A DNA stretch of 64,000 nt from Candidatus Nezhaarchaeota archaeon WYZ-LMO8 (GCA_004347965.1 QNVF01000002.1:18895-82894), one strand, 5' to 3'; counted from the first letter of the stretch, positions 20,877 through 43,012 are shown. Notes: generated from the letters alone by a model not told the origin. Program-made: numbers and translations.

Positions 20877-22610
20877 TTGTGCAAGATGTCTTTTCTCGAG
20901 GTGGATATAATGCTAATTAGCGGTGCTGAGGCTATAGTTCGTTCTTTAAAAAGAGAGGGGGTCAAGGTTATCTTCGGTATACCGGGAGGCGCTGTTCTAC
21001 CATTATACGATGCACTCTACGACTCAGACATAAGGCACATCCTCGGAAGACATGAGCAGTGCGTTGCACACATGGCTGATGGCTATGCAAGAGCTAGCGG
21101 TAAGCCAGGAGTCTGCATAGCCACGTCCGGTCCAGGAGCTACCAACCTTGTAACGGGCTTGGCGACAGCATACATGGATAGCTCACCAGTAGTGGCATTG
21201 ACGGGGCAAGTTGCTAGGCACATGATAGGTAAGGATGCTTTCCAGGAGGCTGACATAATTGGGATCGTAACACCAATAACGAAGTACTGCTTTCAACTCA
21301 CATCAGCTAAAGAGATACCGAAGGTATTCAAAACTGCTTTCACGATAGCCTCAACAAGACGTCCGGGACCAGTACTCATAGACATGCCAGTTGATGTTCA
21401 GAGGGAACAGGCTGAAATTGAGTTCACTGATGAGCTGGACATTAAGGGCTACGATCAAAACCCACCATGGATTAACTCTGACAAAATTAAGAAAGCTGCC
21501 GAAGTACTAGCCGAGGCAGAAAGACCTCTCATACTTGCAGGTGGAGGCGTAATATTGTCTGGAGCTCACGTGGAGCTTTTGACACTAGCTGAAATGCTTT
21601 CAGCTCCTGTTGCAACGACCTTAATGGGTAAGGGCTCCATATCGGAGGATCATCCTCTATGCTTGGGCATGATGGGAATGCACGGCAAGGCTTACGCTAA
21701 CTATGCAGCTATTGAGTGCGACGTTCTGCTTGCTATTGGAACTCGCTTCTCTGATAGGACCACAGGAAAGTTTGACGAGTTTGCTAAAGGAGCCTACAAG
21801 ATACATGTAGACATAGATTCAGCAGAGATAAACAAGAACGTGCGAGTTGATTTACCGATAGTTGGAGATGCTAAGGAGGTTCTACGATCATTGATAAAGG
21901 AGCTTAAGAAATGCAAGAGGTTAAAACCACGTAATGCATGGTTCAATAGGGTAAGGGAGCTTCGATTCGCTTTTGAGCAAGGAGTTGAAGAACAACAGGG
22001 TTCTGCTCTTAGGCCATCATCTGTAATCAAGCTTCTAAACAAGTTGTTGGAACCGGGTAAGTCGATAGTCACAACTGGTGTAGGCCAAAACCAGATGTGG
22101 TCTGCTTTACATTACTTAGCAAGAACACCAAGATCTTTCATAACGTCAGGGGGTTTAGGAACTATGGGATTTGGTTTTCCAGCAGCACTTGGAGCTAAGG
22201 TGGCTTGCCCAGATAAGGTGGTCGTCGACATAGACGGCGATGGAAGTTTCCTAATGACTGAGCAAGATTTAGCGACATCGGTCACCGAGGGTATACCAGT
22301 AATAGTTGTTATATTGAACAACAGCTCTCTTGGTATGGTTAGGCAGTGGCAGCACTTAATGTACAAGAGGAGGTTCATAGCCATAGACCTAAAAGGGGTT
22401 CCAGATTTTGTTAAGCTCGCACATGCTTATGGAGCTGAGGGTATGAGACCTGGCTCGCTTGAGGAGCTTGAGAAGGCATTAAAGGAGGCAATGAAATGTG
22501 AGGTTACCACAGTAATAGACGTCAACATCTCTCCAGAAGAGAGGGTCTTCCCTATGGTTCTTCCTGGCAGAGCGCTTCATGAGGTGTTAGCTAATGAACC
22601 AAAAAGCTGA
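20877..22610 (+). CDS. ilvB: Acetolactate synthase, large (catalytic) subunit. The likely true start is the internal Met at ~20910.
   Basis: The TPP enzyme has the N-terminal domain GAEAIVRSLKREGVKVIFGIPGG. The TPP motif is GDGSFLMTEQDLAT...NN. The ilvNCD genes follow it. Confidence 0.85.
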   Translation: MCKMSFLEVDIMLISGAEAIVRSLKREGVKVIFGIPGGAVLPLYDALYDSDIRHILGRHEQCVAHMADGYARASGKPGVCIATSGPGATNLVTGLATAYMDSSPVVALTGQVARHMIGKDAFQEADIIGIVTPITKYCFQLTSAKEIPKVFKTAFTIASTRRPGPVLIDMPVDVQREQAEIEFTDELDIKGYDQNPPWINSDKIKKAAEVLAEAERPLILAGGGVILSGAHVELLTLAEMLSAPVATTLMGKGSISEDHPLCLGMMGMHGKAYANYAAIECDVLLAIGTRFSDRTTGKFDEFAKGAYKIHVDIDSAEINKNVRVDLPIVGDAKEVLRSLIKELKKCKRLKPRNAWFNRVRELRFAFEQGVEEQQGSALRPSSVIKLLNKLLEPGKSIVTTGVGQNQMWSALHYLARTPRSFITSGGLGTMGFGFPAALGAKVACPDKVVVDIDGDGSFLMTEQDLATSVTEGIPVIVVILNNSSLGMVRQWQHLMYKRRFIAIDLKGVPDFVKLAHAYGAEGMRPGSLEELEKALKEAMKCEVTTVIDVNISPEERVFPMVLPGRALHEVLANEPKS

Positions 22611-23085
22611 GCCTAGGATATTAGTAATGATAGTTGAAGACAAACCAGGAGTGCTATACAAAGTAAGCTCAATAATCAGGAGAAGAGGAATAAACATAGA
22701 TGCAATATCAGTAGCTGCAACAACAGAGCCTGGGATTTCAAAGATGACTTTCCTTGTAAATGTCGACGAAGAAACGATGGAACAGCTCGTCAGACAAATC
22801 GAGAAAGTACCAACAGTTATATCAGTAGGCTCAAGCCCTATAAGAGGACTTTACTCCAAGGAGCTTGCTTTAATAAAAGCGAACGTTTCCAAGCCCGGTG
22901 AAAGAGAAGCACTACGTGCACTAGCGATGAAGTTCAATGCTCGCATAGTGGAGGAGAAAGCCTTCACACTAACGATAGAGATCGTTGGCTTACCTGAAGA
23001 AGTTAGCAACTTCATAAACGAAGTAAAAGTTATAACTGAAATCGTAGATCTGAGTAGGTCAGGTCCCGTGGCATTGTCGAGGTAG
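22594..23085 (+). CDS. ilvN: Acetolactate synthase, small (regulatory) subunit
   Basis: The ACT domain reads ILVMIVEDKPGVLYKVSSIIRRRGINIDAISVA. It overlaps ilvB by 17 nt. Confidence 0.75.
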   Translation: MNQKAEPRILVMIVEDKPGVLYKVSSIIRRRGINIDAISVAATTEPGISKMTFLVNVDEETMEQLVRQIEKVPTVISVGSSPIRGLYSKELALIKANVSKPGEREALRALAMKFNARIVEEKAFTLTIEIVGLPEEVSNFINEVKVITEIVDLSRSGPVALSR

Positions 23086-24081
23086 ATGCTCTTGGCTCGC
23101 ATATATAGAGATCATGAGATAGACGACAGCATTCTGAGAGGATCAATCATAGCAGTGATAGGTTATGGAAGTCAAGGGAGAGCTCAAGCTTTAAATCTTA
23201 GGGATAGCGGCTTCAACGTCGTAGTAGGGTTGAGGAGGGAAGGAGTTTCCTGGAAGCTTGCATCGTCTGAAGGATTTGAAGTACTTGAGATCCCAGATGC
23301 TGTAAGAAAGGCTGATGTCATCTTATTCCTAATACCTGACACCGAACAACCAAATGTCTACGAGGAGAAGATAAAGCCCAACCTCTCAGAGGGTAAAAGT
23401 CTGTGCTTCGCTCACGGCTTCAACGTACACTTTGGAGTTATAAGACCTCCACGAGAAGTTGACGTTTTCATGGTTGCTCCGAAAAGTCCTGGAGCAAAAG
23501 TTAGAGAGATGTACCTTCAAGGAAAGGGGGTTCCAGCCTTAGTAGCAGTTTACAATGATTACTCTAATAGGGCCCTTCAGAAAGCTCTAGCCATAGCTAA
23601 AGGCATAGGATGCGCTAGAGTTGGTGTCATAGAAACGACGTTCAAGGAGGAGACGGAGACGGATCTGATAGGCGAGCAGTGCGTGCTTGTTGGAGGACTT
23701 ATGGAGCTTATAAAGAAGGGATTTGAAGTCCTCGTAGAGGAAGGCTATCAACCTGAGGTAGCATACTTTGAAGTCTGCAATGAGGCAAAGCTCATAATGG
23801 ACCTGATATATAGTGGAGGTCTAACTGGAATGCTTCGAGGAGTTAGCGATACAGCTAAGTACGGTGGGTTAACTGTTGGGCCAAAGGTCATAGACGAGAA
23901 GGTTAAAGAGAACATGAAAATAGTTGTTAAAGCGGTGAAGGATGGCTCTTTTGCCAAAGATTGGATTGAAGAGTGTGCATCAGGCAAGAAACGTCTTATG
24001 GAACTAATGAAGGTGATCGAAAACCATAAGCTGGAAGTAGTTGGTAGGGAGATCAGAAAACTAGCTGGAATTGAGGGTTGA
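23086..24081 (+). CDS. ilvC: Ketol-acid reductoisomerase
   Basis: The Rossmann motif is [21 protein letters not shown]. It sits between ilvN and ilvD. Confidence 0.85.
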
Positions 24082-24087
24082 TGATGT

Positions 24088-25740
24088 TTGGGCTTTCGAA
24101 GCAGCGTCTTAAAGTCCTTTCCTCGTGGCCTTCCTTACAGGGGCCTCTTAAAGGCCTTAGGTTTAACTGATGAAGATTTCAAGAAGCCCTTCATAGCAGT
24201 GGTCAATAGCTATTCGGAAATAGTCCCAGGACACATTCACCTTAGAATCGTAGCTGAGGCTGTGAAGAGCGGTATTCTAATCGCTGGGGGTCAACCATTC
24301 GAGGTTAATACCATAGCAATATGTGACGGCTTAGCTATGGGTCACGAAGGAATGAAATACTCCTTACCATCCAGGGACCTAATAGCTGACTCAATAGAGC
24401 TTGTTGTGGAGGCACATAGGTTTGACGGTATGGTCTTGATATGTTCATGCGACAAGATAATTCCAGGCATGTTAATGGCTGCAGCTAGGCTCAACATACC
24501 GTCCATAGTTGTAACCGGAGGCCCAATGATGCCTGGAGACTATAAAGGAGAGAAGGTAACATTGGTCAAGCTCTTTGAAGCTCTTGGTGAGCACGCTAGA
24601 GGGCTTCTCACAGTTAATGATTTAAAGGAAGTGGAGGATAGCGTTTGCCCAGGACCAGGGTCATGCAGTGGAATGTTCACAGCCAATACTATGGCCTGCC
24701 TAGTAGAGGCTATGGGTATGGGGTTACCCAAAGTTGGTACTGCACCAGCAGTGTCAGCTGAGAGAATCAGAATAGCTAAGAGGTCCGGGGAGCTGATAGT
24801 TGAGATGGTGAGGAAAGGGATAAGGCCTAGGGACGTAATGACGAGGGAAGCCTTCTTAAATGCTATAGCGGTTGACGTGGCATTAGGAGGGTCAACTAAC
24901 ACGGCTTTACATTTGCCGGCTATAGCTCACGAAGCTGGTATAGAGCTTGAACTCGACGAATTCGACAGGATGAGTAGGATAGTACCACAGCTATGCACAA
25001 TATCGCCAAACGGTCCTCACACAGTCTATGATCTCCACATGGCAGGTGGCATTATGGCCTTGATGTCGGAGATAAGGGGTCACCTTCACTTGGACGCGCT
25101 TACTGTAACTGGCAAGACTATAGGCGAATTGATAGAGAATGCTTACGTTAGGGACAGAAGCATCATAAGGAGCACCTCAAACCCAGTTATGATCGAGGGA
25201 GGCTTAGCCGTCTTAAAGGGCTCTCTTGCTCCTAGGGGCTCCGTAGTGAAGATAGCTGCTGTGCCAAAATCCATGTGGAGGTTTAAAGGAGTAGCCAAGG
25301 TCTTTAATTCGGAAGAGGAAGCTGTTGAGGCCATAACTAATAAAAAGATAGAGGAAGGAAGCGTCGTGATTATAAGGTACGAGGGGCCTAAAGGAGGGCC
25401 AGGGATGAGAGAAATGCTCATGCCTACTTCATTAATAGTCGGTATGGGCTTATGGGAGAAAGTCGCATTGGTCACAGATGGTAGATTCTCAGGTGCAACT
25501 AGGGGGCTAGCTGTCGGTCACGTGTCACCTGAAGCGGCTGAAGATGGTCCGATAGCTAAGGTTGTTGATGACGACGTAATAACGATAGATCTTCATAGCA
25601 GAAGGATAAATGTAGACTTCATAGTACCTGAAGAGGAGAGGATCAAGAAACTAAGTAGGCCCAACAAAGTCTTGAAAGGCTACTTAGCGAGGTATTCCCA
25701 AAGAGCTCTATCAGCAGATAAAGGCGCTATACTAACATAG
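24088..25740 (+). CDS. ilvD: Dihydroxy-acid dehydratase
   Basis: The 550 aa ILVD/EDD family member carries the segments [11 protein letters not shown] and [16 protein letters not shown]. Confidence 0.85.
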
Positions 25741-27443: not shown

Positions 27444-28163
27444 ATGAGTCATAAGGTAGGGGGCCTCATAGCTTCTGGAAAGACCAAACTAGTCTACTCT
27501 CTTGACGATCCCTCTCTCGTTCTCTTAAGGTTTAAGGATGATGTGACAGCTCTTGATGGAAAGAAGAGAGATGTTATACCAGGTAAGGGCTCTCTTAATG
27601 CAGGCATATCTGCAAGGCTCTTCCAATTACTGAAAGAGAACAACGTCCACAATCATTACATCAAGATGTACGACCCTTCATCTTTAATAGTCAGAAAGCT
27701 CGACATGATACCCGTTGAGGTTGTTTGTAGAAATGTAGCTACTGGCAGTATCGTCAAGAGACTTCCAATAACAGAGGGCACGGTCTTTGACTCACCAATA
27801 ATCGAGTTCTTCCTTAAAGATGATGCGAGGGGAGACCCTATGATAAACAGCTGGCACATGATGGCTCTAAAGCTTGCATCGAAGTGTGAGATAGACGAAA
27901 TAGTTGAGTTAACGTTAAGGGCAAATGACGTCTTAAAGAAGTTCCTAAGTAGCAGGGGCTTAATGCTATTAGATTTCAAGCTAGAATTTGGTAGGAGAAA
28001 TGGAGAGATACTCATAGGGGATGAGCTCGATCCTGACTGTATGAGAGTAAGGGATGCTTCAACCGGTAAAGTTCTTGATAAAGACCTCTATAGGAAAGGA
28101 GCATCGCTAGATGAAGTTAAGAAGGCCTATGAAGAGCTCTATAGGAGGATAGTGGAGACTTGA
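27444..28163 (+). CDS. purC: SAICAR synthetase
   Basis: 239 aa with the PurC family pattern LVYSLDDPS...FKDDVTALDG and LLDFKLEFGR. Confidence 0.85.
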   Translation: MSHKVGGLIASGKTKLVYSLDDPSLVLLRFKDDVTALDGKKRDVIPGKGSLNAGISARLFQLLKENNVHNHYIKMYDPSSLIVRKLDMIPVEVVCRNVATGSIVKRLPITEGTVFDSPIIEFFLKDDARGDPMINSWHMMALKLASKCEIDEIVELTLRANDVLKKFLSSRGLMLLDFKLEFGRRNGEILIGDELDPDCMRVRDASTGKVLDKDLYRKGASLDEVKKAYEELYRRIVET

Positions 28164-29602
28164 ATCTACAACTACCAGGGTTAAGGGAGAAGTGCGGTGT
28201 AGTAGGAGTAACGTCCATAGTTAATAAAACCAATAATGAAATATCAGAAGCCATATACAAAGCCCTCTACTCTCTTCAACATAGAGGGCAGGAAGCAGCA
28301 GGAATAGCATTGTCTAATGGTAGGGAGATCCATGTCTATAAGGGGCTTGGTTTAGTTAGTGAAGTATTCACGAAGGATGTGCTGTTGAAGCTAAAGGGAT
28401 CGCTAGGAATAGGTCACGTTCGCTACTCAACGACTCCAGGACTAACAGTTGAAGAAGCTCAACCCTTTGCTGTCAAGAACCCTAAGTTCTCATTCTCGCT
28501 TGCTTTCAATGGTACCATAACCAATTACCTTGATATCAAAGATATGCTAGCGAAACAGGGAATGGTTTTCGTCACTAAGACCGATACCGAGGTTCTCGCC
28601 AAGCTCTTGGCCAAGAACCTGGTGGACTCAAGAATGGACTACGTAGAAGCCTTCAAGTTGACGGCCTCAGAAATTGATGGAGCTTGCTCACTCGTACTTG
28701 TGAACGATAAAGGAGAGCTATATGCTTACAGAGATCCATTGGGATTTAAACCTCTATGCATAGGCAGGGTAAATGATCTGGTTGTTGTAGCCTCAGAAAC
28801 ATGCGCCCTCGATGTGCTAGCTGGCTTTAATAATTGTGAGTATGAGCCCATTAATCCTGGAGAGTTAGTAAGGATATGTGAAGGCAGCATAGAAAAGATT
28901 CAACTAACAAATTCGCCTAGAAGAGCTAGATGCATGTTCGAGTACGTCTACTTCTCCAGACCAGACTCCATCTTCGATGGGATATCAGTCTACAAAGCTA
29001 GGGAGAGAATAGGTAGAGAGCTAGCTAAGAGGTTTCCAGCCGATGGCGATGTAGTGGTTCCAGTTCCAGATTCAGGAAGAACAGCAGCTCTTGGATACTC
29101 GCTTGAGCTTGGGATACCATTTGCCGAAGGCCTCATGAAGAATAGGTACGTGGGAAGGACCTTCATAATGCCGGGTCAAGATTTAAGAGACGAAATGGTG
29201 TCCATAAAGTTAAATGTAATTAAGGAAGTAATCAATGATAGGAGGGTAATCTTGATAGATGACTCAATAGTTAGAGGCACGACGATGAAAAGGATCGTTA
29301 AGTTGTTGAGAAAAGGTGGAGCTAGAGAGATTCATGTTAGGATAAGCTGTCCGCCAATAATAAGTGCATGCTACATGGGGATAGATTTTCCGACGAAGAG
29401 GGAGCTAATAGCTAGAATGATGTCTCTTGACGAACTAACGAGATACATAGAGGCCGATACACTTCGATACAACACGGTGGATGGCCTCCTTGCTGGAATA
29501 GGCCTCTCTGAGAGCGAGCTATGCTTAGCATGTTTAACAGGCAAGTATCCGCTAGCCAAGGAATATAGGTTTGAGCTTCTTGAAGAGTTCTTGAGGAGGT
29601 AA
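28160..29602 (+). CDS. purF: Amidophosphoribosyltransferase with an 11-residue propeptide preceding Cys1 (TTG start)
   Basis: MNLQLPGLREK-CGVVGV puts the Ntn-Cys after an 11-aa propeptide. LQHRGQEAAGIA is present, as are the PRTase motif ILIDDSIVRGTT and the Fe-S Cys ligands (CMFEY, CLACLTG). Confidence 0.85.
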   Translation: MNLQLPGLREKCGVVGVTSIVNKTNNEISEAIYKALYSLQHRGQEAAGIALSNGREIHVYKGLGLVSEVFTKDVLLKLKGSLGIGHVRYSTTPGLTVEEAQPFAVKNPKFSFSLAFNGTITNYLDIKDMLAKQGMVFVTKTDTEVLAKLLAKNLVDSRMDYVEAFKLTASEIDGACSLVLVNDKGELYAYRDPLGFKPLCIGRVNDLVVVASETCALDVLAGFNNCEYEPINPGELVRICEGSIEKIQLTNSPRRARCMFEYVYFSRPDSIFDGISVYKARERIGRELAKRFPADGDVVVPVPDSGRTAALGYSLELGIPFAEGLMKNRYVGRTFIMPGQDLRDEMVSIKLNVIKEVINDRRVILIDDSIVRGTTMKRIVKLLRKGGAREIHVRISCPPIISACYMGIDFPTKRELIARMMSLDELTRYIEADTLRYNTVDGLLAGIGLSESELCLACLTGKYPLAKEYRFELLEEFLRR

Positions 29603-29606
29603 GCTC

Positions 29607-30941
29607 TTGGCTGGAGTTATTGGGATCTATGCCTTTGATAAGCTATGGAGGATGGCTAGGTTCGCATACTACGGCCTCCTAGCTCTTCAGAATAGAGGAC
29701 AAGAGACAGCTGGAATCGTGACTTGCCATGAAGACGGCCTCTCAGAGTATAAGGGAAGGAACACTGTAGACAGGGTTTTCTTAGAAGAGAAATTGTCATC
29801 GATGAAGGGGTGGCTTGCGATAGGTTGCGTGGACGCGGAAGTTAGGCATGAAGGATCCATTCAACCAGTTATAGTTAACAAGCCTACGAAACTAGCTTTT
29901 TGCATGGATGGTAAAGCACTTAATTGGCGCGAAATAGCAGTCGAAGAGGGGGTAAGCACAGAAAGCGACGTTAACGCAGTGGCAATGATCCTATCTAAAT
30001 ATGTTGATAAACATGGTCTCCTCAATGGGGCGGTTAGACTCTTAGAGATGCTTAAAGGGGGTTATTGCTTCATAGCCTTAACTAGCAGTGGCGAGATGAT
30101 AGCTGCTAGAAGCCCAAGCGGCATAAAGCCCCTAGTCATAGGGAGCTTTGGCTTTGACTATGGAGTAATAGCATCGGAGAGCTGCGCAATAGACGTAATA
30201 GGAGCAGATTATAAGGCCGATGTGTTTCCAGGAGAAGTTTACCTCTTTACCTCATATAGCATTGAGAAGGCTAGAGCTCAGAGGAGTGAAGTCGCATACT
30301 GCTCATTCGAGTACGTCTACTTAGCTAGACCTGATTCATACATAAATGACATAAGCGTCTACGAGACAAGAATGAGGATAGGTGAGGTACTGGCTGAAGA
30401 GCACCCAGTTGAAGGCGATGTAGTTATAGGGGTTCCAGAAACAGCGATACCGTTTGCAATGGCTTATTCGAACAAAATGAAAATACCTATAGCCATGGGT
30501 TTTGTGAGAACAGGTCCTCATGTTAGGAGCGCGATAAAGCCAACACAGTTCGAGAGACTCGTTGGAGTGCAGCTCAAATTAAACCCCATAAGGGGTGCCG
30601 TAAAGGGTAAAAGAGTAATACTGATCGACGACAGCGTTGTCAGGGGTAATACAACCAAGAACACAGTTACCCTCATGAGGAACAAGCTTGGGGTGAAGGA
30701 GATTCACGTGAGGATTGGAAGCCCTAAAATAACATCTCATTGCCCATTCGGCGTTGAGGTTCCACCAGAAGACGAGCTCATAGCTCGCCACTTATCTGAT
30801 GAAGAGGTCGCAGCAGTTGTAGGAGCTGACTCGTTTCACTGGCTATCGCTAAATGGATTAGTAAGAGCGATAGGTATCCCTCAAAGCATGCTATGCTTAG
30901 GATGCTTCACCGGAGAATATCCTCTCTGTTTGAAGACCTAA
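29607..30941 (+). CDS. PurF paralog whose N-terminal nucleophile Cys is replaced by Ala (TTG start)
   Basis: AGVIGIY aligns with CGVVGVT of the upstream copy. LQNRGQETAGIV, the PRTase motif ILIDDSVVRGNT and the Fe-S Cys (CSFEY, CLGCFTG) are retained. Confidence 0.7.
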   Translation: MAGVIGIYAFDKLWRMARFAYYGLLALQNRGQETAGIVTCHEDGLSEYKGRNTVDRVFLEEKLSSMKGWLAIGCVDAEVRHEGSIQPVIVNKPTKLAFCMDGKALNWREIAVEEGVSTESDVNAVAMILSKYVDKHGLLNGAVRLLEMLKGGYCFIALTSSGEMIAARSPSGIKPLVIGSFGFDYGVIASESCAIDVIGADYKADVFPGEVYLFTSYSIEKARAQRSEVAYCSFEYVYLARPDSYINDISVYETRMRIGEVLAEEHPVEGDVVIGVPETAIPFAMAYSNKMKIPIAMGFVRTGPHVRSAIKPTQFERLVGVQLKLNPIRGAVKGKRVILIDDSVVRGNTTKNTVTLMRNKLGVKEIHVRIGSPKITSHCPFGVEVPPEDELIARHLSDEEVAAVVGADSFHWLSLNGLVRAIGIPQSMLCLGCFTGEYPLCLKT

Positions 30942-30953
30942 TCGGGGAGAAGT

Positions 30954-32435
30954 ATGGTTAAGGTCTTGCTTATAGGAGATGCCTCGCGAGAACATGCAAT
31001 AGCAGACGCGTTTGCTAGAAGCATTCATGAACCAAAACTCTATGCTGCAATGTCTAGGAGGAACCCTGGCATAACTAAGCTTTGTAAGCGAACTGGAGGT
31101 GACGTTGCCATCGGTAACATAGACGATCCTAACTTCGTAGTAAAGGCAGCTCTAGATTTCCACGTGGACTTCGCATTCGTGGGCCCTGAAGAGCCATTGT
31201 TTCACGGAATACCTGACGCATTAGAAGAGACTGGGGTACCATGTGTTGGGGCCAGGAGAAGCATGGCTTTGGTGGAGATGTCAAAGGCTTTCATGAGGAG
31301 GCTCATGTGGAAGTACAAGGTTCCAGGCAGATTGAGGTTTAAAGCCTTCAAGTCGCTTGAAGATGCAGTTGCATACGTGAATGAGTATGCTGAGAGCGTC
31401 GCAATAAAGCCTGCTAGGCAGGCTGGAGGCAAGGGTGTGAAGGTAATAGCTGATCTTCAAGTTTACCTGAGCAAGGAGAAACGAGAGGTTAAGGCTGAGC
31501 ATGTTAAGACAGTCTACGAGAAGCACATGGCTGTCTACGATGACATAGACGATAAGGTCCTCATAGAAGAGAAGGTTGAAGGTCCTGAGTACACTCTCCA
31601 GGCATTTACCGATGGGAGGACTGTGCTTCCTTTACCAGCAGTCCAAGATAACAAGAATGCCTATGAGATGGATATAGGACCTGAAACTGGAGGCATGGGA
31701 TCGATAGCTGGACCAGGATGGTTACTACCATTTTTAACTGAAGAGGAGTACAAGCAATCAGTTGAGATAATCCAATCGGTCGTCGAGGCTCTATGGAAGG
31801 AGACAGGCGTAAGGTATAAGGGAGTAATATCAGGCCAGATGATGCTTACAGCTCTTTGGGGACCAACAATCATAGAGTTCTACAGTCGCTTTGGCGATCC
31901 TGAGGCCTGCAACGTGCTTCCATACATTGAAGCCGACATCGTTGAGATATCAGAAGCAATCATAGATGAGAGGTTGAACACGATTAAAATAAGCTTTCCA
32001 AACATAGCGACTGTGGTAAAAGCTGTTGCACCAAAAGGTTATCCTGATCATCGAGACCTAGCAAGAGGGCACCCAGTTTTTATAGATGAAGAAGCCATTA
32101 GGAGGAGAGGGTGCAAGGTCTACTATGGATCATTGGATGAGAGATCTGATGAGACCATCGTGACTGCAGGATCGAGGATAGCAGAGATAGTAGCTGCTGC
32201 ACCAACGATACCTGAAGCTAGTGAGATAGCTGAAAGCTGTGTGCAATACGTGAGGCTTCTAGATGGTTGGGGCGTCTTTCATAGGAGCGATATAGGCTCC
32301 GAAGTTCTCTTGAAAAAGAGGATAGAGCAGGCTCAACTCATAAGGGAGATATACCACTATAGGCTAAGTAGGAGACTTATAGGTAAGGCTATAGACTGGA
32401 TACCTGGAAGAGGCAAGATAGAATATGAATTTTAA
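30954..32435 (+). CDS. purD: Phosphoribosylamine--glycine ligase (GAR synthetase), unusually long at 493 aa
   Basis: The N-terminus MVKVLLIGDASREHAIADAF matches PurD. It has the ATP-grasp architecture and a C-terminal extension. Confidence 0.8.
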   Translation: MVKVLLIGDASREHAIADAFARSIHEPKLYAAMSRRNPGITKLCKRTGGDVAIGNIDDPNFVVKAALDFHVDFAFVGPEEPLFHGIPDALEETGVPCVGARRSMALVEMSKAFMRRLMWKYKVPGRLRFKAFKSLEDAVAYVNEYAESVAIKPARQAGGKGVKVIADLQVYLSKEKREVKAEHVKTVYEKHMAVYDDIDDKVLIEEKVEGPEYTLQAFTDGRTVLPLPAVQDNKNAYEMDIGPETGGMGSIAGPGWLLPFLTEEEYKQSVEIIQSVVEALWKETGVRYKGVISGQMMLTALWGPTIIEFYSRFGDPEACNVLPYIEADIVEISEAIIDERLNTIKISFPNIATVVKAVAPKGYPDHRDLARGHPVFIDEEAIRRRGCKVYYGSLDERSDETIVTAGSRIAEIVAAAPTIPEASEIAESCVQYVRLLDGWGVFHRSDIGSEVLLKKRIEQAQLIREIYHYRLSRRLIGKAIDWIPGRGKIEYEF

Positions 32436-32495: not shown

Positions 32496-33899
32496 TTGGT
32501 GGTATTTTTGAGGTTTAGGGAGGAACTGGGGACTCCTCTACTTGAAGGTGCAACTAAGATATTGCTTTTAGGTGCTGGAGAGTTAGGCAAGGAGATAGCC
32601 ATTGAGGCTCAGAGACTTGGAGTAGAAGTGGTGACAGTAGACAGGTACGACATGCCTCCAGCTAGCCATGTAGCTCACAGACACTACACAATCAACATGC
32701 TTGACGGTAAGGCATTGAAGGTAGTGGTAAGAAGAGAGAAGCCTGATGCAATTGTTCCTGAGATAGAAGCAATAAATACTGACGCTCTCCTAGAGCTAGA
32801 AGAGGAGGGCTTCTTTGTAGTCCCTAATGCGCGAGCAGTCAAAATAACCATGGATAGAATTCTGTTGAGAAAGCTTGCAGCTGAAGAAGCTGGCGTCCCC
32901 ACGTCAAGGTACATGTTTGCTGAAAGCTTAGAGGAGTTAAAGGAGTGCTGTGAAAACATAGGCTATCCTTGCCTAGTGAAGGCTCAAATGAGTAGTGGAG
33001 GGCTAGGTTCAACTGTTGTTACCGGTAAGAACATGGTCGAGTTGGCTTATGAGAGAGCTATGAAGGAGGCTAGGGGCTTTAGTAAGCGAGTAATAGTTGA
33101 AGAGCTCGTAAACTTCGATGTTGAAGTTACAGTCCTAACGTTAGCTCACATAGGGCTTGATGGAGATATAGCAGTAACACCTCTAGAGCCAGTAGGCCAC
33201 GTACGATCTACAGGTCATTATCACGTAAGCTGGCAACCCCTCTTCGACATAGATCCAGACACTAACTACTCTAAATCGCCTTTTGAAGGCTATGGAGGAC
33301 CAATGCACTTAATGGAGGATCCACCAATTAATGGGCTTAGGTGGAGGTCTTCATGGAATGGCAAGAGAATTGACGGAGAGAGAGCTAAAATCGTCAAGGA
33401 GATGTTGTTTGAAACAGCTAGGAGGGTAGTGACTAAGCTCTTGGAGACTAAGGAAGGGTTAAAGGGGCTTGGGATCTTTGGTTGCGAGATATTCGTTAAG
33501 CTGGGTGGTGAAGGAGAGAGACCACGAGTATTCTTCAATGAGGTCTCACCTAGACCGCATGATACTGGCATGGTAACTCTTGTGACACAGGATCAGTCAG
33601 AAATGGCTTTACATGTAAGGGCAATACTTGGCCTCCCAATACCGGAGGTCAAGGTGTTGACTTGTGGTGCAAGCCACGTCATACTAGCTAAGGTTGGAGG
33701 CTCGTGGTCTCCGAGGTATGGGGGAGTGAGCGAGGCTTTGAAGATACCTGGCGTCCAATTAAGGCTCTTCGGCAAGCCAGTAACCTACGTTGATAGGAGG
33801 ATGGGGATAGCTCTCGCCATAGCAAACACCATAAACGAGGCGAGGTCTAAGGCTATGAGGGCAGCACACATAGTTGAGGGAGCTATGAAGTATGGCTGA
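32496..33899 (+). CDS. purT: Formate-dependent phosphoribosylglycinamide formyltransferase (GAR transformylase 2) with an internal insertion
   Basis: LLGAGELGKEIAIEAQRLGVEVVTVDRY, EVSPRPHDTGMVTLVTQDQSEMALHVRA and LRLFGKP are near-identical to canonical PurT blocks. It is 467 aa against ~390 typical. Confidence 0.8.
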   Translation: MVVFLRFREELGTPLLEGATKILLLGAGELGKEIAIEAQRLGVEVVTVDRYDMPPASHVAHRHYTINMLDGKALKVVVRREKPDAIVPEIEAINTDALLELEEEGFFVVPNARAVKITMDRILLRKLAAEEAGVPTSRYMFAESLEELKECCENIGYPCLVKAQMSSGGLGSTVVTGKNMVELAYERAMKEARGFSKRVIVEELVNFDVEVTVLTLAHIGLDGDIAVTPLEPVGHVRSTGHYHVSWQPLFDIDPDTNYSKSPFEGYGGPMHLMEDPPINGLRWRSSWNGKRIDGERAKIVKEMLFETARRVVTKLLETKEGLKGLGIFGCEIFVKLGGEGERPRVFFNEVSPRPHDTGMVTLVTQDQSEMALHVRAILGLPIPEVKVLTCGASHVILAKVGGSWSPRYGGVSEALKIPGVQLRLFGKPVTYVDRRMGIALAIANTINEARSKAMRAAHIVEGAMKYG

Positions 33900-34543: not shown

Positions 34544-35614
34544 GTGTTGTGGAGCTACAGCAAAGCCGGGGTCGACTTAGATAGAGTTAAGAGAGCACAT
34601 AAATCGATAGTGGAGATCATAGAAGCAACATACGAGTTCAGACGAGAGCTTTTTGGGAGGATTATAAGAGGGGCAGGTCATTACGCAGCACTGATAGATA
34701 TTGGTGGAGGAAAAGCCTTAGCACTTCACGCTGACGGCGTTGGAACTAAGGTATTGATAGCTCAATTGATGAATAGGTACGATACGGTCGGTATAGATTG
34801 TATAGCCATGAATGTGAATGACCTAATATGTGTAGGAGCGGAGCCTATAGCCATGATAGACTACCTAGCAGTCGAGAAGAGCGATGAGGACATGATCGCT
34901 GAGATAATGAAGGGACTAGTTAGAGGTGCTGAAATGGCTGGGATAGCTATAGTAGGTGGCGAGACAGCGGTAATGCCTGATGTAATAAAAGGTGCAGTTG
35001 AAGGAAGGGGCTTCGACTTAGCTGGACTAAGCATAGGAGTGGTTGATGTAGATAAAGTGATTATGGGAGATAAAATTCAAGTGGGGGATGCTATTGTTGG
35101 AGTTAAAAGCTCAGGTATACACAGTAATGGTTTAACTCTCGCTAGGAAAGTCTTGCTTGAACACGCTGCCCTCAACGTTCATAGTTATGTAAATGAACTG
35201 CAATGCACTGTAGGTGAAGAGCTTCTAAAACCTACGTACATATACGTAAAACCCATTCTTGAGCTTCTACGAAAGGGCCTTGAAGTCCATGGTTTAGCTC
35301 ATATAACTGGTGGCTCCTTTACAAAGCTTCTAAGGATAGCACCACAAGGACTTGGCTTTAAGCTTGATAACATGCCTGAGCCTCATGTAATATTTAAGCT
35401 GATACAGAGTCTTGGTAGAATATCAAATTGGGAGATGTATAGGACCTTCAATATGGGCATAGGCTTTTGCGTAGTGGTACCTAAACACGAGGTAGAAGAA
35501 GTGATTAGGATCTTTAAACTTCACGGCTTCGAGGCTCAGCAAATAGGTTCCATAATAGATGAACCTCGAGTGGAAATAGAGTTAAAGGATGAGAAGCTGG
35601 TCTACTCAACCTAA
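34544..35614 (+). CDS. purM: AIR synthetase (phosphoribosylformylglycinamidine cyclo-ligase)
   Basis: The PurM motifs present are ALHADGVGTKVLIA and DCIAMNVNDLICVGAEP. Confidence 0.85.
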   Translation: MLWSYSKAGVDLDRVKRAHKSIVEIIEATYEFRRELFGRIIRGAGHYAALIDIGGGKALALHADGVGTKVLIAQLMNRYDTVGIDCIAMNVNDLICVGAEPIAMIDYLAVEKSDEDMIAEIMKGLVRGAEMAGIAIVGGETAVMPDVIKGAVEGRGFDLAGLSIGVVDVDKVIMGDKIQVGDAIVGVKSSGIHSNGLTLARKVLLEHAALNVHSYVNELQCTVGEELLKPTYIYVKPILELLRKGLEVHGLAHITGGSFTKLLRIAPQGLGFKLDNMPEPHVIFKLIQSLGRISNWEMYRTFNMGIGFCVVVPKHEVEEVIRIFKLHGFEAQQIGSIIDEPRVEIELKDEKLVYST

Positions 35615-36174
35615 ATTAATCCTACAGCTAAAGCGACTGATATGAGGAGTAGAGCTCCTATAACATCACAAACTGCTGTCACTATAGGTATCGTCGTGTT
35701 ATCTGGGTCCCAACCATACCTATACGTCACAAACCCGGCTACTACACCAACTATGATAGCTATTACTGAAGTTGATACTCCAGTTACTAACACAATGATT
35801 AAAATCTTTACTGGTTCTACTCCCTTTAAGCCTAAGAAGTAAGATGCCGTCATAGCTAAGAACGTCAGATAAAGTGATGATAGTGCAGCAACAACTATCA
35901 TGGTAACAGCGTACTTCTCAAGGTATGGACTCCTCTCAATCTTAGGTCTTACGAGACCTAAATGCAGGTATGTTGCTATTTTAGATCCTATCATGCATCC
36001 CATGTTTCCGGTCATGTCCATCAAACAAGGTATTAAGATTAAGAGAACCGGCAAGGTCAATAAAGTCTCGAGCTTAGCATTAAGCACTGTTCCCGCAAAG
36101 CTATCTATTACTACAGAAGCTGTTATTGAAACAGTTCCTTGCTTAACAATGTCTTTAGCTTTGTAGACCGTCAT
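35611..36174 (-). CDS. MgtE-family divalent cation transporter, membrane domain only
   Basis: The MgtE TM signature reads LIPCLMDMTGNMGCMIGSKI ... DPDNTTIPIVTAVCDVIGAL. It is 187 aa and has no cytosolic N-domain. Confidence 0.6.
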   Translation of the reverse strand: MTVYKAKDIVKQGTVSITASVVIDSFAGTVLNAKLETLLTLPVLLILIPCLMDMTGNMGCMIGSKIATYLHLGLVRPKIERSPYLEKYAVTMIVVAALSSLYLTFLAMTASYFLGLKGVEPVKILIIVLVTGVSTSVIAIIVGVVAGFVTYRYGWDPDNTTIPIVTAVCDVIGALLLISVALAVGLI

Positions 36175-36175
36175 A

Positions 36176-36733
36176 TTACAACCCCATAGCCATGAGCACT
36201 AAAGCAGCTAAGAACAGGCATGGTATGCTAACCACATCACCCAACGTCGTTATGATGGGGCCCATTATTACGTCAGGGTCCAAGCCCCTCTGATAGACCT
36301 TTATAGTCATAATCACGGTTACTAGCGTTATAACTAGGCTTGAAAGTGCTCCAGCTATCAATGAAAGTAAAAGAAGCGTTAAAAAACCTGCAGAAGTAAA
36401 GCCGAAGAGGAGACACATAAAATGCGCTAAGCAACCTATGAGAACTGAGAGCACAAGACTCAGTATCAACGTGCCTATAATATTCTGCAAAAGCTCTTTT
36501 GATAACTTCAATCTTGGCTCTATGATACCTACGTGTAGAGCTGAGCTTAACCTTGAAGCTAATGTACCACCAATTGCACCCCGCATTTGAAGGAAGGCTG
36601 GGACCATTATCAGCATGCCTGGAAGCTCTTCAAGCGCCCCCCTCATGAGTGCAAGACCTATGCCTGCTAGGACGTCGATTGTTAGACTTACAAATTGCGT
36701 TAATAATCCTTGTCGAATCGTATTTTTAAACAC
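36176..36733 (-). CDS. MgtE-family divalent cation transporter, membrane domain only (tandem paralog)
   Basis: It has the same architecture (...LQMRGAIGGTLASRL...LDPDVIMGPIITTLGDVVSI). It is directly upstream of the previous gene, separated by 1 nt. Confidence 0.6.
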   Translation of the reverse strand: MFKNTIRQGLLTQFVSLTIDVLAGIGLALMRGALEELPGMLIMVPAFLQMRGAIGGTLASRLSSALHVGIIEPRLKLSKELLQNIIGTLILSLVLSVLIGCLAHFMCLLFGFTSAGFLTLLLLSLIAGALSSLVITLVTVIMTIKVYQRGLDPDVIMGPIITTLGDVVSIPCLFLAALVLMAMGL

Positions 36734-36837
36734 GATCCCTCCCTCATCGCGGTAAGGCTTAAATCTTATCTTAAGCCTCTAGGTATTACATATATATCCT
36801 GTGTCTGTGATCCCGATAGTGGGGGACTAGATTTAGA

Positions 36838-37395
36838 TTGGAAGAACATAAATCGGTTCGAGAACTATTAGTTGAGATAAAGAACGTAACTGAAAAGATA
36901 GTGGATTTGGCATTTTCATCATTCATGTTCGACTTGGATGATGTAGCTCACGAAGTGTTGAGACTTGAGGAGCGCATTGATGATCTACTCTATTCGCTGT
37001 ACATGAAGGTTTTAATGGCATCAGAGACAGCTTACGACGTTGAGAGACTAACCCCTCTTTTAGTGATAGCGTCAGCTATGAGCAGCATAGCTGATGCAGC
37101 TGGTGATTTAGCGAAGATATTTCTTAAGGGCTTCAAGCTGCATCCAATAGTTTATGAATCACTAAAGGAAGTGGAGGAAAGAGTTGTATCTACCAGGATA
37201 AGGAAGGAATCCAAGCTTGTAGGCAAGAGGATAGCTGACATAAGCGAGGAGCTTGGTGCTCCCGTTACTCCTCTAATTGTATGCAGAGGACGAAGACGAT
37301 TGATAACTCCTCCCGAAGACTTAGTGATAGAACCTGGGGACATAATAATAGTTAGGGCGAATAGGGAAGTAGCTGAGAAACTAGAGGAGTTGTAA
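36838..37395 (+). CDS. PhoU-like (DUF47-like) helical domain plus TrkA_C regulatory domain protein
   Basis: The N-terminal helical domain is followed by the C-terminal segment GKRIADISEELGAPVTPLIVCRGRRRLITPPEDLVIEPGDIIIV, which is the TrkA_C pattern. Confidence 0.55.
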   Translation: MEEHKSVRELLVEIKNVTEKIVDLAFSSFMFDLDDVAHEVLRLEERIDDLLYSLYMKVLMASETAYDVERLTPLLVIASAMSSIADAAGDLAKIFLKGFKLHPIVYESLKEVEERVVSTRIRKESKLVGKRIADISEELGAPVTPLIVCRGRRRLITPPEDLVIEPGDIIIVRANREVAEKLEEL

Positions 37396-37398
37396 GCT

Positions 37399-37986
37399 GT
37401 GGACAAGAACTTATTGCTAGAAATAAGGGACATGCTCATAGAGCTCAAGAACATCACCGAGTTTATGGTCGATCTAGCGTATACGGCACTACTAACTAAT
37501 AGCAGGGAGTTGGCTGAGGAAGTTGAAAGGCTCGAAGAGTACATAGATGAGCTTCACACACGCTATGAGATGGCCGTCTTAGAGCTAGCTAAACTAAGTG
37601 AGAAGCCCTCTGAGTTCTTAGGAACTCTTAGAGTAGGACTTGTAGTTGAAACCTTAGCTGATGCTGCTAGAGAAATGGTTGAGCCAATACTTAGAGGAGA
37701 TAGTCCTCATGACGTCTTTGTCGTGGTAATGCGTGAAGCTGAAGAAGCAATGCATAGAATTAGGATTGAGGAGTCCTCACCATTAATTGGTAAGGACCTG
37801 TCGGAGCTTAGAGCTAAGGGCTTACCGGTAACGGTCGTAGCAATAAGGAGGGGAGGAAACTGGATATTGAATCCAGGAGATGAAGTGAAGCTCTATCCGG
37901 GTGACGTCTTAGTGATCAAGGGGAGAGAAGAGGATCTCGAAGCAGTAAAAGAGCTTGCTCAAGGTACGATGGAGAAAGAGGAATAA
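37399..37986 (+). CDS. PhoU-like helical domain plus TrkA_C regulatory domain protein (tandem paralog)
   Basis: It has the same two-domain layout. The TrkA_C segment is GKDLSELRAKGLPVTVVAIRRGGNWILNPGDEVKLYPGDVLVI. Confidence 0.55.
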   Translation: MDKNLLLEIRDMLIELKNITEFMVDLAYTALLTNSRELAEEVERLEEYIDELHTRYEMAVLELAKLSEKPSEFLGTLRVGLVVETLADAAREMVEPILRGDSPHDVFVVVMREAEEAMHRIRIEESSPLIGKDLSELRAKGLPVTVVAIRRGGNWILNPGDEVKLYPGDVLVIKGREEDLEAVKELAQGTMEKEE

Positions 37987-38650
37987 CGTAATGAACGTTA
38001 ATAGCTCAAGGGCTTTACTTAGGATGCTAGAGCGTAGGGGCATGAAGGTGAATGAGCTATCACCTGGTGAAATGAGCGAAGACTATCTAGGCTATTTACA
38101 GGGCCAAGGAATAGTACGCTTGAACCAAGGAGTGCTTTACGTCACCGATCCAGTACGTCTAGCAATAGAAGCAATTAAGCTAGGCGTTGATGTTGAGACT
38201 GCATCTAGATGGCTCAATTGGAGAGACTTCGAAAGGCTTTGCGTAGAAGCTTTAAGAAGCCACAACTTTAGCGTCAAGGCCCCTTTTAGGTTCAAGGCTG
38301 ATGGTAAGAGACATGAGATAGACGTGGTAGCGCATAAGAAAAACGTTGTTTTATGTATTGACTGTAAACATTGGAAGATGAAGCGAGGCCAACAATACAG
38401 AATTAAGGGTTTTACGATGAACCATCTGGATAAATGTGTAAAGTTTGCTGAATTAGTAAAGTCTTCTAGGGTCGTTAAACTCGAGCTTCATAGTGGAGCA
38501 TACTTAGTTCCTATGATAGTAACGTTGATAGACCTAGACTTTAAGCATCATTTAAATGGCGTCTGGATATTACCAATATTCAAGCTGAACTCCTTTCTAC
38601 TAGACCTCGAAGCTCATTTAGACGAGCTCTCTCTCATAAAGGTTCGTTGA
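37955..38650 (+). CDS. Predicted PD-(D/E)xK nuclease with an N-terminal winged helix. The likely start is MNVNSS at ~37991.
   Basis: FERL ... HEIDVVA ... VVLCIDCKHWK gives an E / D / (D)xK triad in the spacing of Hjc- or restriction-endonuclease-like folds. The N-terminal segment LLRMLERRGMKVNELSPGEM is wHTH-like. Confidence 0.5.
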   Translation: MLKVRWRKRNNVMNVNSSRALLRMLERRGMKVNELSPGEMSEDYLGYLQGQGIVRLNQGVLYVTDPVRLAIEAIKLGVDVETASRWLNWRDFERLCVEALRSHNFSVKAPFRFKADGKRHEIDVVAHKKNVVLCIDCKHWKMKRGQQYRIKGFTMNHLDKCVKFAELVKSSRVVKLELHSGAYLVPMIVTLIDLDFKHHLNGVWILPIFKLNSFLLDLEAHLDELSLIKVR

Positions 38651-38702
38651 GCAAAGCCTGCTAGAAACATTTAAGCTTCTAATGATCTAATTAGTAGGGG
38701 AC

Positions 38703-40643: not shown

Positions 40644-41867
40644 ATGGAGTATAGAGAGATGTCTGTAAGCTATTACAACTTCCTTCCTGAAGTGAGGGTG
40701 TTAATGGAGCTTCCGGGAGACATAATTATCCACGACACAACTCTTAGAGAGGGAGAGCAGGCAGCAGGAGTCGTCTATAGACCTGAAGACAAACTTTACA
40801 TAGCTAAATTACTGGATGAGGTAGGAATTCAACAGATTGAGGCAGGCTTTCCAGCTGCTTCAAGAGGTGAGCGAGAAGCCTTAAAGATGATAGTCATGGA
40901 GGGTCTTAACGCAAAGATCTTTGGTTTTGCTCGAGCAGTCAAGTCAGATATTGATGCCGTTGCTGATGTGGGGGCCTATGGAGTAGTAATGTCCTTTCCT
41001 CCATCCGATATACAATTGAAGTACAAGCTCAAGATTAGCAGGGAAGAGTACTACGATAGGGCAATAGAACTTGTTGAGTACGCTAAGAGTCGAGGTCTCT
41101 ACATAACCTTTAGCGCCGAGGACTCTACAAGAGCAGACTTCAACTTTATGGTAAAAGTCTTCAACGGAATAATAGAGTCCGGTTGCGATAGAGTAAGGAT
41201 AGTTGATACGCTGGGTTGCATACATCCAACAGCCATGAAGTTCTTAATAAAGAGTATTAGAGGGTCTTTAAAGAAGAAGGTCCCTATCGAGGTTCACTGT
41301 CACAATGACCATGGTCTCGCAGTTGCAAACACTCTAGCTGCAGTTGAAGCTGGTGCCGAAGTGTTATCAACATCGATCTTAGGCTTAGGCGAGAGATGCG
41401 GCTTAGCCCCTACAGAGGAAGTGATAGTAGCTCTCAAAAACCTCTACGGTCTGGGAAGCTTCAAGACCGAGAAGTTGTACAAGCTCTGCAGAGAAGTTGA
41501 GAGGATAACTAAGTTAACTTTGCCACCTCATAAACCGGTTGTAGGTATCAATGCTTTTGCACATGCAAGTGGAATACATCAGCATGCGATACTAGAGAAC
41601 CCTATATGTTACGAGCCCTATCCACCTGAAATGGTTGGCCAGGCTAGAAGGATAGTTATAGGGAAGCTCTCTGGTAGACACGCCATAAAGGCTAAATTAG
41701 CAGAACTGGGCATAGAAGCTACGGACGAAGAGGTCTTGAAGATAACCGATCTAGTGAAGTCTGTAAGTGAGGAAAGAAAGTCTCCTTTAAGTGACGAGGA
41801 ATTCATGAATTTAGTGAGAGCAGTTAAAGAAAACTCAGTAAACCAGCTTACTTCAAGGTCTCCCTAA
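40644..41867 (+). CDS. 2-isopropylmalate / homocitrate / citramalate synthase family (DRE-TIM aldolase), short form
   Basis: The active-site segments are IIIHDTTLREGEQAAGV and HCHNDHGLAVANTLAAVEAGA. At 407 aa it lacks a full LeuA regulatory domain. Confidence 0.75.
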   Translation: MEYREMSVSYYNFLPEVRVLMELPGDIIIHDTTLREGEQAAGVVYRPEDKLYIAKLLDEVGIQQIEAGFPAASRGEREALKMIVMEGLNAKIFGFARAVKSDIDAVADVGAYGVVMSFPPSDIQLKYKLKISREEYYDRAIELVEYAKSRGLYITFSAEDSTRADFNFMVKVFNGIIESGCDRVRIVDTLGCIHPTAMKFLIKSIRGSLKKKVPIEVHCHNDHGLAVANTLAAVEAGAEVLSTSILGLGERCGLAPTEEVIVALKNLYGLGSFKTEKLYKLCREVERITKLTLPPHKPVVGINAFAHASGIHQHAILENPICYEPYPPEMVGQARRIVIGKLSGRHAIKAKLAELGIEATDEEVLKITDLVKSVSEERKSPLSDEEFMNLVRAVKENSVNQLTSRSP

Positions 41868-42967: not shown

Positions 42968-43012
42968 GCTTTTCAGTTTATGCTACCTCTACAATGCTTA
43001 CCATTAGTCCTC

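Follow-up and report, generated by a model that had tools for sequence, protein, structure and literature searches.

Why does an archaeal purine operon keep two purF genes in a row, when only the first of them encodes the catalytic cysteine? The question is raised by a stretch of 64,000 nucleotides from Candidatus Nezhaarchaeota archaeon WYZ-LMO8 (GCA_004347965.1, QNVF01000002.1:18895-82894), which is called the window here. A preliminary description had reported tandem purF genes at positions 28160-30941 of the window, and two open reading frames (ORFs) are indeed found there on the same strand. The reaction of PurF commits the cell to purine synthesis and is the most tightly regulated one of the pathway, and the enzyme is a textbook model of ammonia channelling. 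The second gene, here called purF′, encodes a protein (PurF′ or PurF2) that is perhaps best read as a step-1 subunit with a dead glutaminase and a competent phosphoribosyltransferase (PRTase) site, working in a mixed oligomer with PurF.

The gene almost certainly belongs to the archaeal PurF′ family. The kind has been known since 2011, and the window adds a member from the Nezhaarchaeales. The preliminary description treated the second purF as a fresh observation. This does not hold, since the same cluster of Cys-less proteins, and the ammonia hypothesis for them, are found in Brown et al. 2011 (PMC3261824).

Loss of the glutaminase site

The first gene of the pair is a conventional purF. Its product matches the Bacillus subtilis PurF structures 1GPH and 1AO0 with an E-value of about 1e-115, belongs to the [4Fe-4S] type with a propeptide, and is canonical in every catalytic column of the alignment. 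An 11-residue propeptide had been proposed to precede Cys1, and Cys12 of the precursor does fall into column 1 of the mature B. subtilis protein.

PurF′ is 39% identical to this PurF over 436 columns (E = 2e-87), and aligns over its full length with B. subtilis PurF 1AO0 (E = 6e-88, 38% identity). On the TIGR01134 purF model it scores 316 bits, under the equivalog cutoff of 350. At the start of the protein, Gly3 pairs with Gly2 of mature B. subtilis PurF in the HMMER alignment, and the preceding Ala2 falls opposite the catalytic Cys of Arabidopsis GPRAT2 (6LBP). Therefore, Ala2 occupies the Cys1 column, and the replacement of Cys1 by Ala, claimed earlier, is borne out by alignment to solved PurFs.

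The loss is not confined to the nucleophile. In B. subtilis numbering, Arg72 (E. coli Arg73) is replaced by Asp76 of PurF′, Tyr73 (E. coli Tyr74) by Ala77, and Asn102 (E. coli Asn101) by Asp101. We take Cys1 to be the nucleophile, Arg72 to hold the glutamine carboxylate, Tyr73 to couple the two active sites and to gate the channel, and Asn102 to form the oxyanion hole; these roles are said to go back to Kim et al. 1996, Krahn et al. 1997 and Bera et al. 1999. With the nucleophile, the carboxylate Arg, the coupling Tyr and the oxyanion Asn all gone, PurF′ is, as judged from the alignments, not capable of glutamine hydrolysis. The earlier statement that it cannot form the glutamine thioester thus stands, on the loss of four glutaminase residues rather than one. 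Other residues of the N-terminal domain are retained, namely Arg26/Gly27 (R30/G31 of PurF′, in LQNRGQ), Gly103 (PurF′ Gly102) and Asp127 (PurF′ Asp121), and Trp14 of PurF′ is invariant in a 26-sequence family alignment (A1).

The missing cysteine might in principle be an artefact, due to an error in the Cys codon or a mis-called start, or the mark of a dying duplicate. Apart from the sub-cutoff purF score, no point speaks for this. A hidden upstream Cys is excluded by an in-frame stop four codons before the start (SS-stop-GGKL, followed by L(M)AGVIG). A sequencing error is not credible, because the ten nearest homologs, from other assemblies and with 79-99% identity, all begin M/L-A-G, and because turning GCT into a Cys codon takes two base changes. 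The absence of the Cys has therefore withstood both objections that the preliminary description had named against it. Decay of a duplicate is at odds with the full-length ORF, the confidently predicted fold, the purifying selection (see below) and the existence of a family across archaeal phyla, and we consider the artefact explanation, in all its forms, refuted.

Retention of the phosphoribosyltransferase site

PurF′ has the two-domain architecture of PurF, in which an Ntn class-II glutaminase fold at the N-terminus is followed by a type I PRTase fold, with Pfam domains GATase_7 and Pribosyltran (Table 1). The LQNRGQ, CSFEY and CLGCFTG motifs and the loop for phosphoribosyl pyrophosphate (PRPP) that had been pointed out earlier are all present, as is a fourth Fe-S ligand, Cys379, which had not been listed. 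All residues known for PRPP-Mg binding are retained, among them those of the PRPP loop (D341, D342, S343, R346, G347 and T349), and so are Arg307 of the flexible loop (B. subtilis Arg311, E. coli R332) and Tyr238 (B. subtilis Tyr242, E. coli Y258), which contacts pyrophosphate (PPi). The PPi loop reads P277-E278-T279, a form that we take to be shared by E. coli PurF, of which no sequence was in the alignment. The importance of such residues is illustrated by Arabidopsis GPRAT2, where mutations in the DDS motif or in the Tyr equivalent to Y242 abolish or strongly reduce activity (PMC7056826). The flexible loop is remodelled in PurF′, with Gly303 in place of B. subtilis Arg307 and Ala309 in place of Phe313, but the loop as such is nearly invariant in the family.

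An AlphaFold2 model of PurF′, built on the 26-sequence family alignment, has a predicted local distance difference test (pLDDT) score of 87 and a predicted template modelling score of 0.85. The sole segment of low confidence, residues 304-321, lies in the PRTase flexible loop, which is mobile in real PurFs too. In a Foldseek comparison the model superimposes on B. subtilis PurF 1AO0 over its full length, with a template modelling score of 0.87. PurF′ is thus predicted to have the fold of PurF, a glutaminase site that is dead, and a PRTase site that seems intact and is fully conserved in the alignment. We consider it fairly likely that the latter is functional.

The PurF′ family

The nearest database protein is 99% identical to PurF′ and comes from a metagenome-assembled genome (MAG) of a Candidatus Nezhaarchaeales archaeon. 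The family was characterized from the 120 best homologs, with columns in mature B. subtilis numbering. Position 1 is not Cys in 107 of them; the replacements are Ala (44), Ser (32), Pro (10), Gly (8), Thr (7) and Val (6). None of these 107 Cys-less homologs has Arg at position 72 or Tyr at position 73, and position 102 is Asp or Ser in 96. In the PRTase half, Y242 and Cys236 are invariant (107/107), and D345, D346, S347, R350, G351, T353, R311 and the other three Fe-S cysteines are each found in 106, the exception being an alignment gap. Gly307 and Ala313 of the flexible loop are specific to the clade and shared by these homologs. Exactly one residue, the initiator, precedes position 1 in 98. 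A second search, seeded from a distant Conexivisphaera member, added 88 homologs, all Cys-less and mostly with Pro, which brings the Cys-less homologs to about 195. The matches include proteins from Fervidicoccaceae, Thermoprotei and Thaumarchaeota; no named Sulfolobales protein is among the top 120 of the Conexivisphaera-seeded search.

In a neighbour-joining (NJ) tree, the PurF′ clade is monophyletic on a long stem, and forms that still bear Cys make up two nested groups. The PurF′ of the window is 39% identical to the PurF of its own genome, versus 50-85% to the PurF′ of other phyla. PurF′ is a descendant of an ancient tandem purF duplicate. From the unbootstrapped NJ tree, it seems that the coupling elements changed first, and that Cys1 was lost afterwards, several times.

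Eleven members of the clade (P0018, P0028, P0032, P0034-P0037, P0040, P0042, P0043 and P0045) have a propeptide, Cys1, Asn102, Gly103 and Asp127. In all eleven, positions 72/73 have already changed to Ser/Pro and the flexible loop to the Gly307/Ala313 form. The copies from Jordarchaeum (L004:5872-7329) and Sifarchaeum (L030:5950-7308) also start with a propeptide and Cys, and a third Cys1-bearing locus that was read is L081:5001-6350 (P0028). All three loci have a canonical purF ahead of the gene, in the usual layout. Judging from their residues, the Cys1-bearing members may represent intermediate forms, whose glutaminase works but is uncoupled.

Where Cys1 is lost, Asn102 has repeatedly changed to Asp as well, namely in 73 of the 107 PurF′ proteins from archaea and in most members of the independent bacterial set of Cys-less PurFs discussed below. 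The pairing is apparently convergent.

Public annotation of the family is inconsistent, because names and Pfam assignments differ among members. Some PurF′ proteins (P0122, P0202) are only called "phosphoribosyltransferase family protein", others amidophosphoribosyltransferase, and many lack a precomputed GATase Pfam hit.

Conservation of the purF-purF′-purD order

A scan with one genome per species yielded 27 archaeal loci with a PurF′ family gene. They come from Nezhaarchaeales, Hecatellales, Bathyarchaeia, Methanomethylicia, Nitrososphaeria, Conexivisphaera, Theionarchaea, and the Asgard Jord-, Wukong- and Sifarchaea. A Cys1-bearing purF lies directly upstream on the same strand in 26 of the 27 loci, and 2.7 kb upstream in the remaining one. 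The preliminary description had asked whether Ala1 paralogs co-occur with canonical PurF across archaea; in these loci, members of the PurF′ family do. Downstream, purD is the next gene in all 24 loci for which sequence is available.

All 23 full-length partner PurFs that were tabulated keep every catalytic column in both domains, and on sequence are therefore self-sufficient. A division of labour, in which PurF would have given up its PRTase site, is ruled out by the same count.

The partner PurFs from Methanomethylicia, some Nitrososphaeria and Conexivisphaera (L009, L010, L012-L015, L021 and L037) form a divergent subclade. Most of them have NHRGHES for QHRGQE, all have Asp for the first Thr of the PRPP-loop RGTT, and three have ED for DD; the remaining catalytic residues are kept.

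The gene order also bears on the possibility that PurF′ has left step 1 altogether. It might transfer the phosphoribosyl group of PRPP to another amine or nucleophile, or act in some lineages as a hydrolase with an N-terminal Ser or Thr, and its link to purines would then be genomic only. The score under the purF equivalog cutoff would agree with this, as would the remodelling of the flexible loop and of the former glutamine pocket with family-specific invariant residues; the Ser or Thr that 39 of 107 homologs have at position 1 might in principle serve as an N-terminal nucleophile (Ntn). However, most members have Ala, Gly, Pro or Val at position 1, and hence no nucleophile is common to the family, no other pathway genes are conserved nearby, and purF′ sits between purF and purD in 24/24 loci. 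A different PRPP substrate is disfavoured on this last ground, and we regard the whole explanation as improbable. Of the three functions offered in the preliminary description, this one thus recedes behind the other two, an ammonia-dependent synthase and a partner or regulatory role.

Selection on the two domains

Identities per domain were compared for PurF and PurF′ of the same 21 genomes. The mean pairwise identity of the N-terminal (glutaminase) domain is 0.382 for PurF and 0.384 for PurF′, and that of the C-terminal (PRTase) domain is 0.487 for PurF and 0.607 for PurF′. A similar picture is obtained from nonsynonymous divergence (dN) to the 85%-identical Nezhaarchaeales ortholog (L001). 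For the N-domain, dN is 0.104 in PurF′ and 0.105 in PurF, and for the C-domain 0.066 in PurF′ and 0.099 in PurF. The ratio to synonymous divergence (dN/dS) is about 0.04-0.05 for both PurF′ domains, a value that is only rough because dS is saturated at about 2. Purifying selection acts strongly on both domains of PurF′. Its dead N-domain is just as constrained as the live one of PurF, and the PRTase domain is more constrained than its PurF counterpart. The earlier judgement that a silent pseudogene is unlikely is well supported by these ratios and by the roughly 195 Cys-less homologs.

Possible roles in the first step of purine synthesis

The simplest chemistry for PurF′ would be the conversion of PRPP and NH3 to phosphoribosylamine (PRA), because Cys1 mutants of E. 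coli PurF are still capable of it. Change of Cys1 to Ala or Ser abolishes glutamine use in this enzyme and leaves NH3-dependent PRA synthesis in place (Mei and Zalkin 1989, as cited in PMC3261824). In the mechanism that we propose, PurF′ would still bind PRPP and close its flexible loop, and would aminate PRPP to PRA with ammonia that does not come from its own N-domain. It would do so most probably as a subunit of a mixed PurF/PurF′ oligomer, which would thereby gain a glutamine-independent catalytic or control site for step 1, next to PurD. A mixed oligomer is favoured over a free-standing enzyme because PurFs are obligate dimers or tetramers, the ORFs abut or overlap, PurF′ was never seen alone, and its dead domain is strongly constrained. 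A precedent for catalysis by a Cys-less PurF may be seen in the independent Tissierellia case, where such a protein occupies the normal purF slot. We consider the chances of a heteromer between PurF and PurF′ to be about even; the joint mechanism, amination by PurF′ within such a heteromer, is put forward more tentatively.

Several points weigh against this mechanism. In known PurF structures the ammonia channel runs within one subunit, and it is therefore not obvious how a heteromer would deliver ammonia from PurF to PurF′. In PurF′, the position of the flexible-loop Lys (B. subtilis K305, E. coli K326) varies among R, Q, S and L. The inhibitory nucleotides bind to a C site that overlaps the ribose-5-phosphate site and an A site that overlaps the PPi site (PMC7056826), so retention of the PRPP site would equally be expected if PurF′ only bound such nucleotides. 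Two independent enzymes, too, could be encoded in a tightly coupled operon, and neither PurF-PurF′ nor PurF′-PurD fusions were present among the best 150 matches of a profile search of 1.84 billion representatives, in which the long matches were PurF fused to PurN, PurC or PurM. On the side of the mechanism, distance-matrix (mirror-tree) correlations are 0.81 for PurF-PurF′, 0.85 for PurF′-PurD and 0.68 for PurF-PurD, with partial correlations of 0.61 (PurF and PurF′ given PurD), 0.70 (PurF′ and PurD given PurF) and -0.04 (PurF and PurD given PurF′), but these figures are exploratory only, because pairs are non-independent and phylogeny is shared. Finally, full-text literature searches brought up no biochemical, structural or genetic data on any PurF′, and nothing on its function beyond Brown et al. 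2011.

Alternatively, PurF′ may be a stand-alone, ammonia-dependent PRA synthase, a homo-oligomer that uses PRPP and free NH3 and offers a glutamine-independent route beside PurF, as Brown et al. hypothesized. The intact and highly constrained PRTase site and the NH3-dependent activity of the E. coli Cys1 mutants would fit this. The replacement of Tyr73 by P, A, T or S and of Phe313 by Ala could open the site to solvent ammonia, and in Tissierellia the normal purF slot is taken by Cys-less PurFs, the 11-17 kb that were read containing no canonical purF. Alternative nitrogen routes would, however, be expected to be separately regulated and sometimes to occur alone, and purF′ adjoins purF in 26 of 27 loci from several phyla and is never the sole copy in the 27. 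A mere lid on the PRTase site would not need a constrained dead N-domain with new invariant residues such as Trp14, and some members of the clade still have Cys1, Asn102 and Asp127. On balance, a free-standing synthase appears rather unlikely.

PurF′ might also make no PRA at all. As a non-catalytic partner, comparable to a pseudoenzyme or "prozyme", it would bind PRPP or purine nucleotides and regulate, stabilize or scaffold PurF in a hetero-oligomer, possibly bridging it to PurD so that the unstable PRA can be handed over. The conserved purF-purF′-purD order with abutting ORFs, the 23 of 23 self-sufficient partner PurFs, and PurF′ distances that track those of PurF and PurD (in the exploratory analysis above) are in line with such a role. 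Conservation of the PRPP site is no proof of catalysis, since this site overlaps the C and A sites for nucleotides (PMC7056826). Channelling from PurF to PurD in E. coli is supported by kinetic evidence, and no stable complex was found (PMC10912719), which leaves room for a bridging subunit. On the other hand, the catalytic loop and the PPi contacts are more conserved than in PurF, which would be unusual for a purely regulatory paralog. Moreover, the residues that we take to form the allosteric A site are remodelled or variable, with R, Q, S or L for K305, Gly for R307, and R or P for Y308; the assignment is reportedly due to Zhou, Smith and Zalkin 1994 and Chen et al. 1997. The best 150 profile matches likewise contain no fusions that would support a physical link. 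We therefore consider a purely non-catalytic role unlikely.

The proposed mixed oligomer can be extended to a bolder version. PurF′ would then be an obligatory subunit of a hetero-oligomeric archaeal step-1 enzyme, to which PurD might dock. The dead glutaminase domain would serve as an interface or regulatory module, and the highly conserved PRTase site of PurF′ would be a principal place of PRA synthesis or hand-off. This version is speculative, and we would not expect it to hold in full. If it were true, the homomeric textbook PurF would not describe most TACK and Asgard archaea.

Relation to known proteins

Brown, Hoopes, White and Sarisky (2011, Biol Direct 6:63) found two PurF-like proteins per crenarchaeon, in two clusters (PMC3261824). 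One cluster bears the Cys, and the other, named PurF′, is set apart by the absence of the N-terminal Cys, often replaced by Ala or Val; the genes for both lie near each other and near other pur genes in Crenarchaeota, and PurF′ was proposed to be an ammonia-dependent aminotransferase (PMC3261824). The protein of the window agrees with these published features in its separate clustering, the lack of Cys1, the adjacency to purF and other pur genes, and the presence of a canonical PurF. It differs in its host, as the Nezhaarchaeales were outside the 2011 survey. To that survey, the present analysis adds that the family reaches into Bathyarchaeia, Methanomethylicia, Asgard lineages and Theionarchaea. 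It also adds the loss of the Arg, Tyr and Asn residues, the purF-purF′-purD order, the stronger constraint on the PRTase domain, and the existence of Cys-retaining members.

With B. subtilis PurF (1AO0/1GPH), PurF′ shares the two-domain fold, the four [4Fe-4S] cysteines, the PRPP loop and the Tyr and Arg that contact PPi. It differs in having neither propeptide nor Cys1, and in the replacement of Arg72, Tyr73, Asn102, Arg307 and Phe313. As read from its sequence, it lacks three features by which PurF is defined, namely Cys1, the glutamine-site residues and a TIGR01134 score above the cutoff. The E. coli Cys1 mutants are a laboratory analogue of its appearance, but PurF′ is natural and anciently fixed, and has changed at additional positions of the glutamine site and of the elements that couple the domains.

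Loss of Cys1 has also occurred elsewhere. Mlab_0150 of Methanocorpusculum labreanum is a PurF homolog without Cys1 (PMC3261824). Together with P0355, P0365 and P0371 from Tissierellia/Bacillota, it represents independent cases with Ser or Gly for Cys1. Unlike PurF′, these proteins have a canonical flexible loop (Arg307, Phe313) and fall outside the PurF′ clade.

The bacterial Cys-less PurFs were inspected at L082:5001-6296, L083:8001-9287 and L084:8001-9353, in Tissierellia/Bacillota MAGs GCA_030532165.1, GCA_030532225.1 and GCA_030538075.1. They have Ser or Gly at position 1, and most of those listed have Asp for Asn102. A hidden Cys is excluded in L082 by a stop in frame three codons upstream. 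The operon reads purE-purF*-purM-purN-purH (purF* being the Cys-less gene); in L082 and L084 purD comes next. No canonical purF is present in the 11-17 kb that surround each of the three genes and were read. If these genomes have no Cys-bearing purF elsewhere, they would provide a natural case of an ammonia-dependent PurF as the sole copy.

Dead paralogs that partner oligomeric enzymes offer an analogy, for example the trypanosomatid AdoMetDC prozyme and HisZ, which works with HisG. As in these systems, a catalytically impaired paralog is kept beside an active relative. The differences are that a complex of PurF and PurF′ is only proposed, and that just one of the two active sites of PurF′ is dead.

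A paralog with a dead glutaminase is thus kept beside PurF across Thermoproteota, Asgard archaea and some Euryarchaeota. This implies that step 1 in these archaea works, or is controlled, unlike the bacterial and eukaryotic model. For annotation, the consequence is that purF′ genes should not be called glutamine amidophosphoribosyltransferase.

Genomic context

The features of the locus are listed in Table 1. The gene order in the window is ilvBNCD, purB, purC, purF, purF′, purD, purT, purE, purM. The pur block is contiguous, as had been stated, with purB on the opposite strand. The genes of the tandem are tightly packed. The purC stop overlaps the purF start (TTGA at the junction), purF and purF′ are separated by 4 nt between stop and start, and purF′ and purD by 12 nt.

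Table 1. Features of the tandem purF locus, in window coordinates
Feature	Position	Strand	Basis
purC (SAICAR synthase)	27444..28163	+	TIGR00081 207 bits, cutoff 190
purF, canonical, 480 aa, TTG start	28160..29602	+	TIGR01134 475 bits, cutoff 350
Cys12 codon of PurF, catalytic Cys1 after removal of the 11-residue propeptide	28193..28195	+	column 1 of mature B. subtilis PurF
GAGGAGG, Shine-Dalgarno-like, within the last part of purF, 7 nt upstream of the purF′ TTG	29593..29599	+	sequence read
purF′ (PurF2), 444 aa, TTG start	29607..30941	+	ORF, alignments, profile, fold
Ala2 codon (GCT) of PurF′, Cys1 column	29610..29612	+	HMMER to 1AO0 and 6LBP; MAFFT
Former Ntn-glutaminase domain of PurF′, residues 2-225	29610..30281	+	alignments; AlphaFold2 pLDDT mostly >85
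Type I PRTase domain of PurF′, residues 226-444	30282..30938	+	PF00156
Cys232, [4Fe-4S] ligand (B. subtilis Cys236)	30300..30302	+	alignment columns
PRTase flexible loop, residues 301-326, RTGPHVRSAIKPTQFERLVGVQLKLN	30507..30584	+	alignments
PRPP loop DDSVVRGNT, residues 341-349	30627..30653	+	alignment columns
Cys379, [4Fe-4S] ligand	30741-30743	+	alignment columns
Cys430, [4Fe-4S] ligand	30894-30896	+	alignment columns
Cys433, [4Fe-4S] ligand	30903-30905	+	alignment columns
purD (GAR synthetase), consumes the PRA of step 1	30954..32435	+	TIGR00877 352 bits, cutoff 288

None of purL/purQ/purS, purN or purH/purP lies within the pur block of the window, and ARAGORN found no tRNA genes in all of its 64 kb. 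PurD has 493 residues, of which about 40 form a C-terminal extension beyond residue 451, where the match to the purD model (425 positions) stops. PurT (32496-33899, +) has 467 residues and matches the purT models of about 390 residues in two stretches, which implies that roughly 70-80 residues are inserted in its middle part. Directly after purM, at 35611-40487, there are six consecutive ORFs of 187, 185, 185, 195, 231 and 594 codons' worth of amino acids, without any NCBIfam match at E <= 1e-8. The pur block is preceded by the branched-chain amino acid genes ilvB, ilvN, ilvC and ilvD (20877-25740). Downstream of it, at 40644-45432, lie a gene similar to LeuA or homocitrate synthase and one for a LeuB-like dehydrogenase, and genes for subunits resembling the beta and gamma subunits of sulfhydrogenase are also found on this side.

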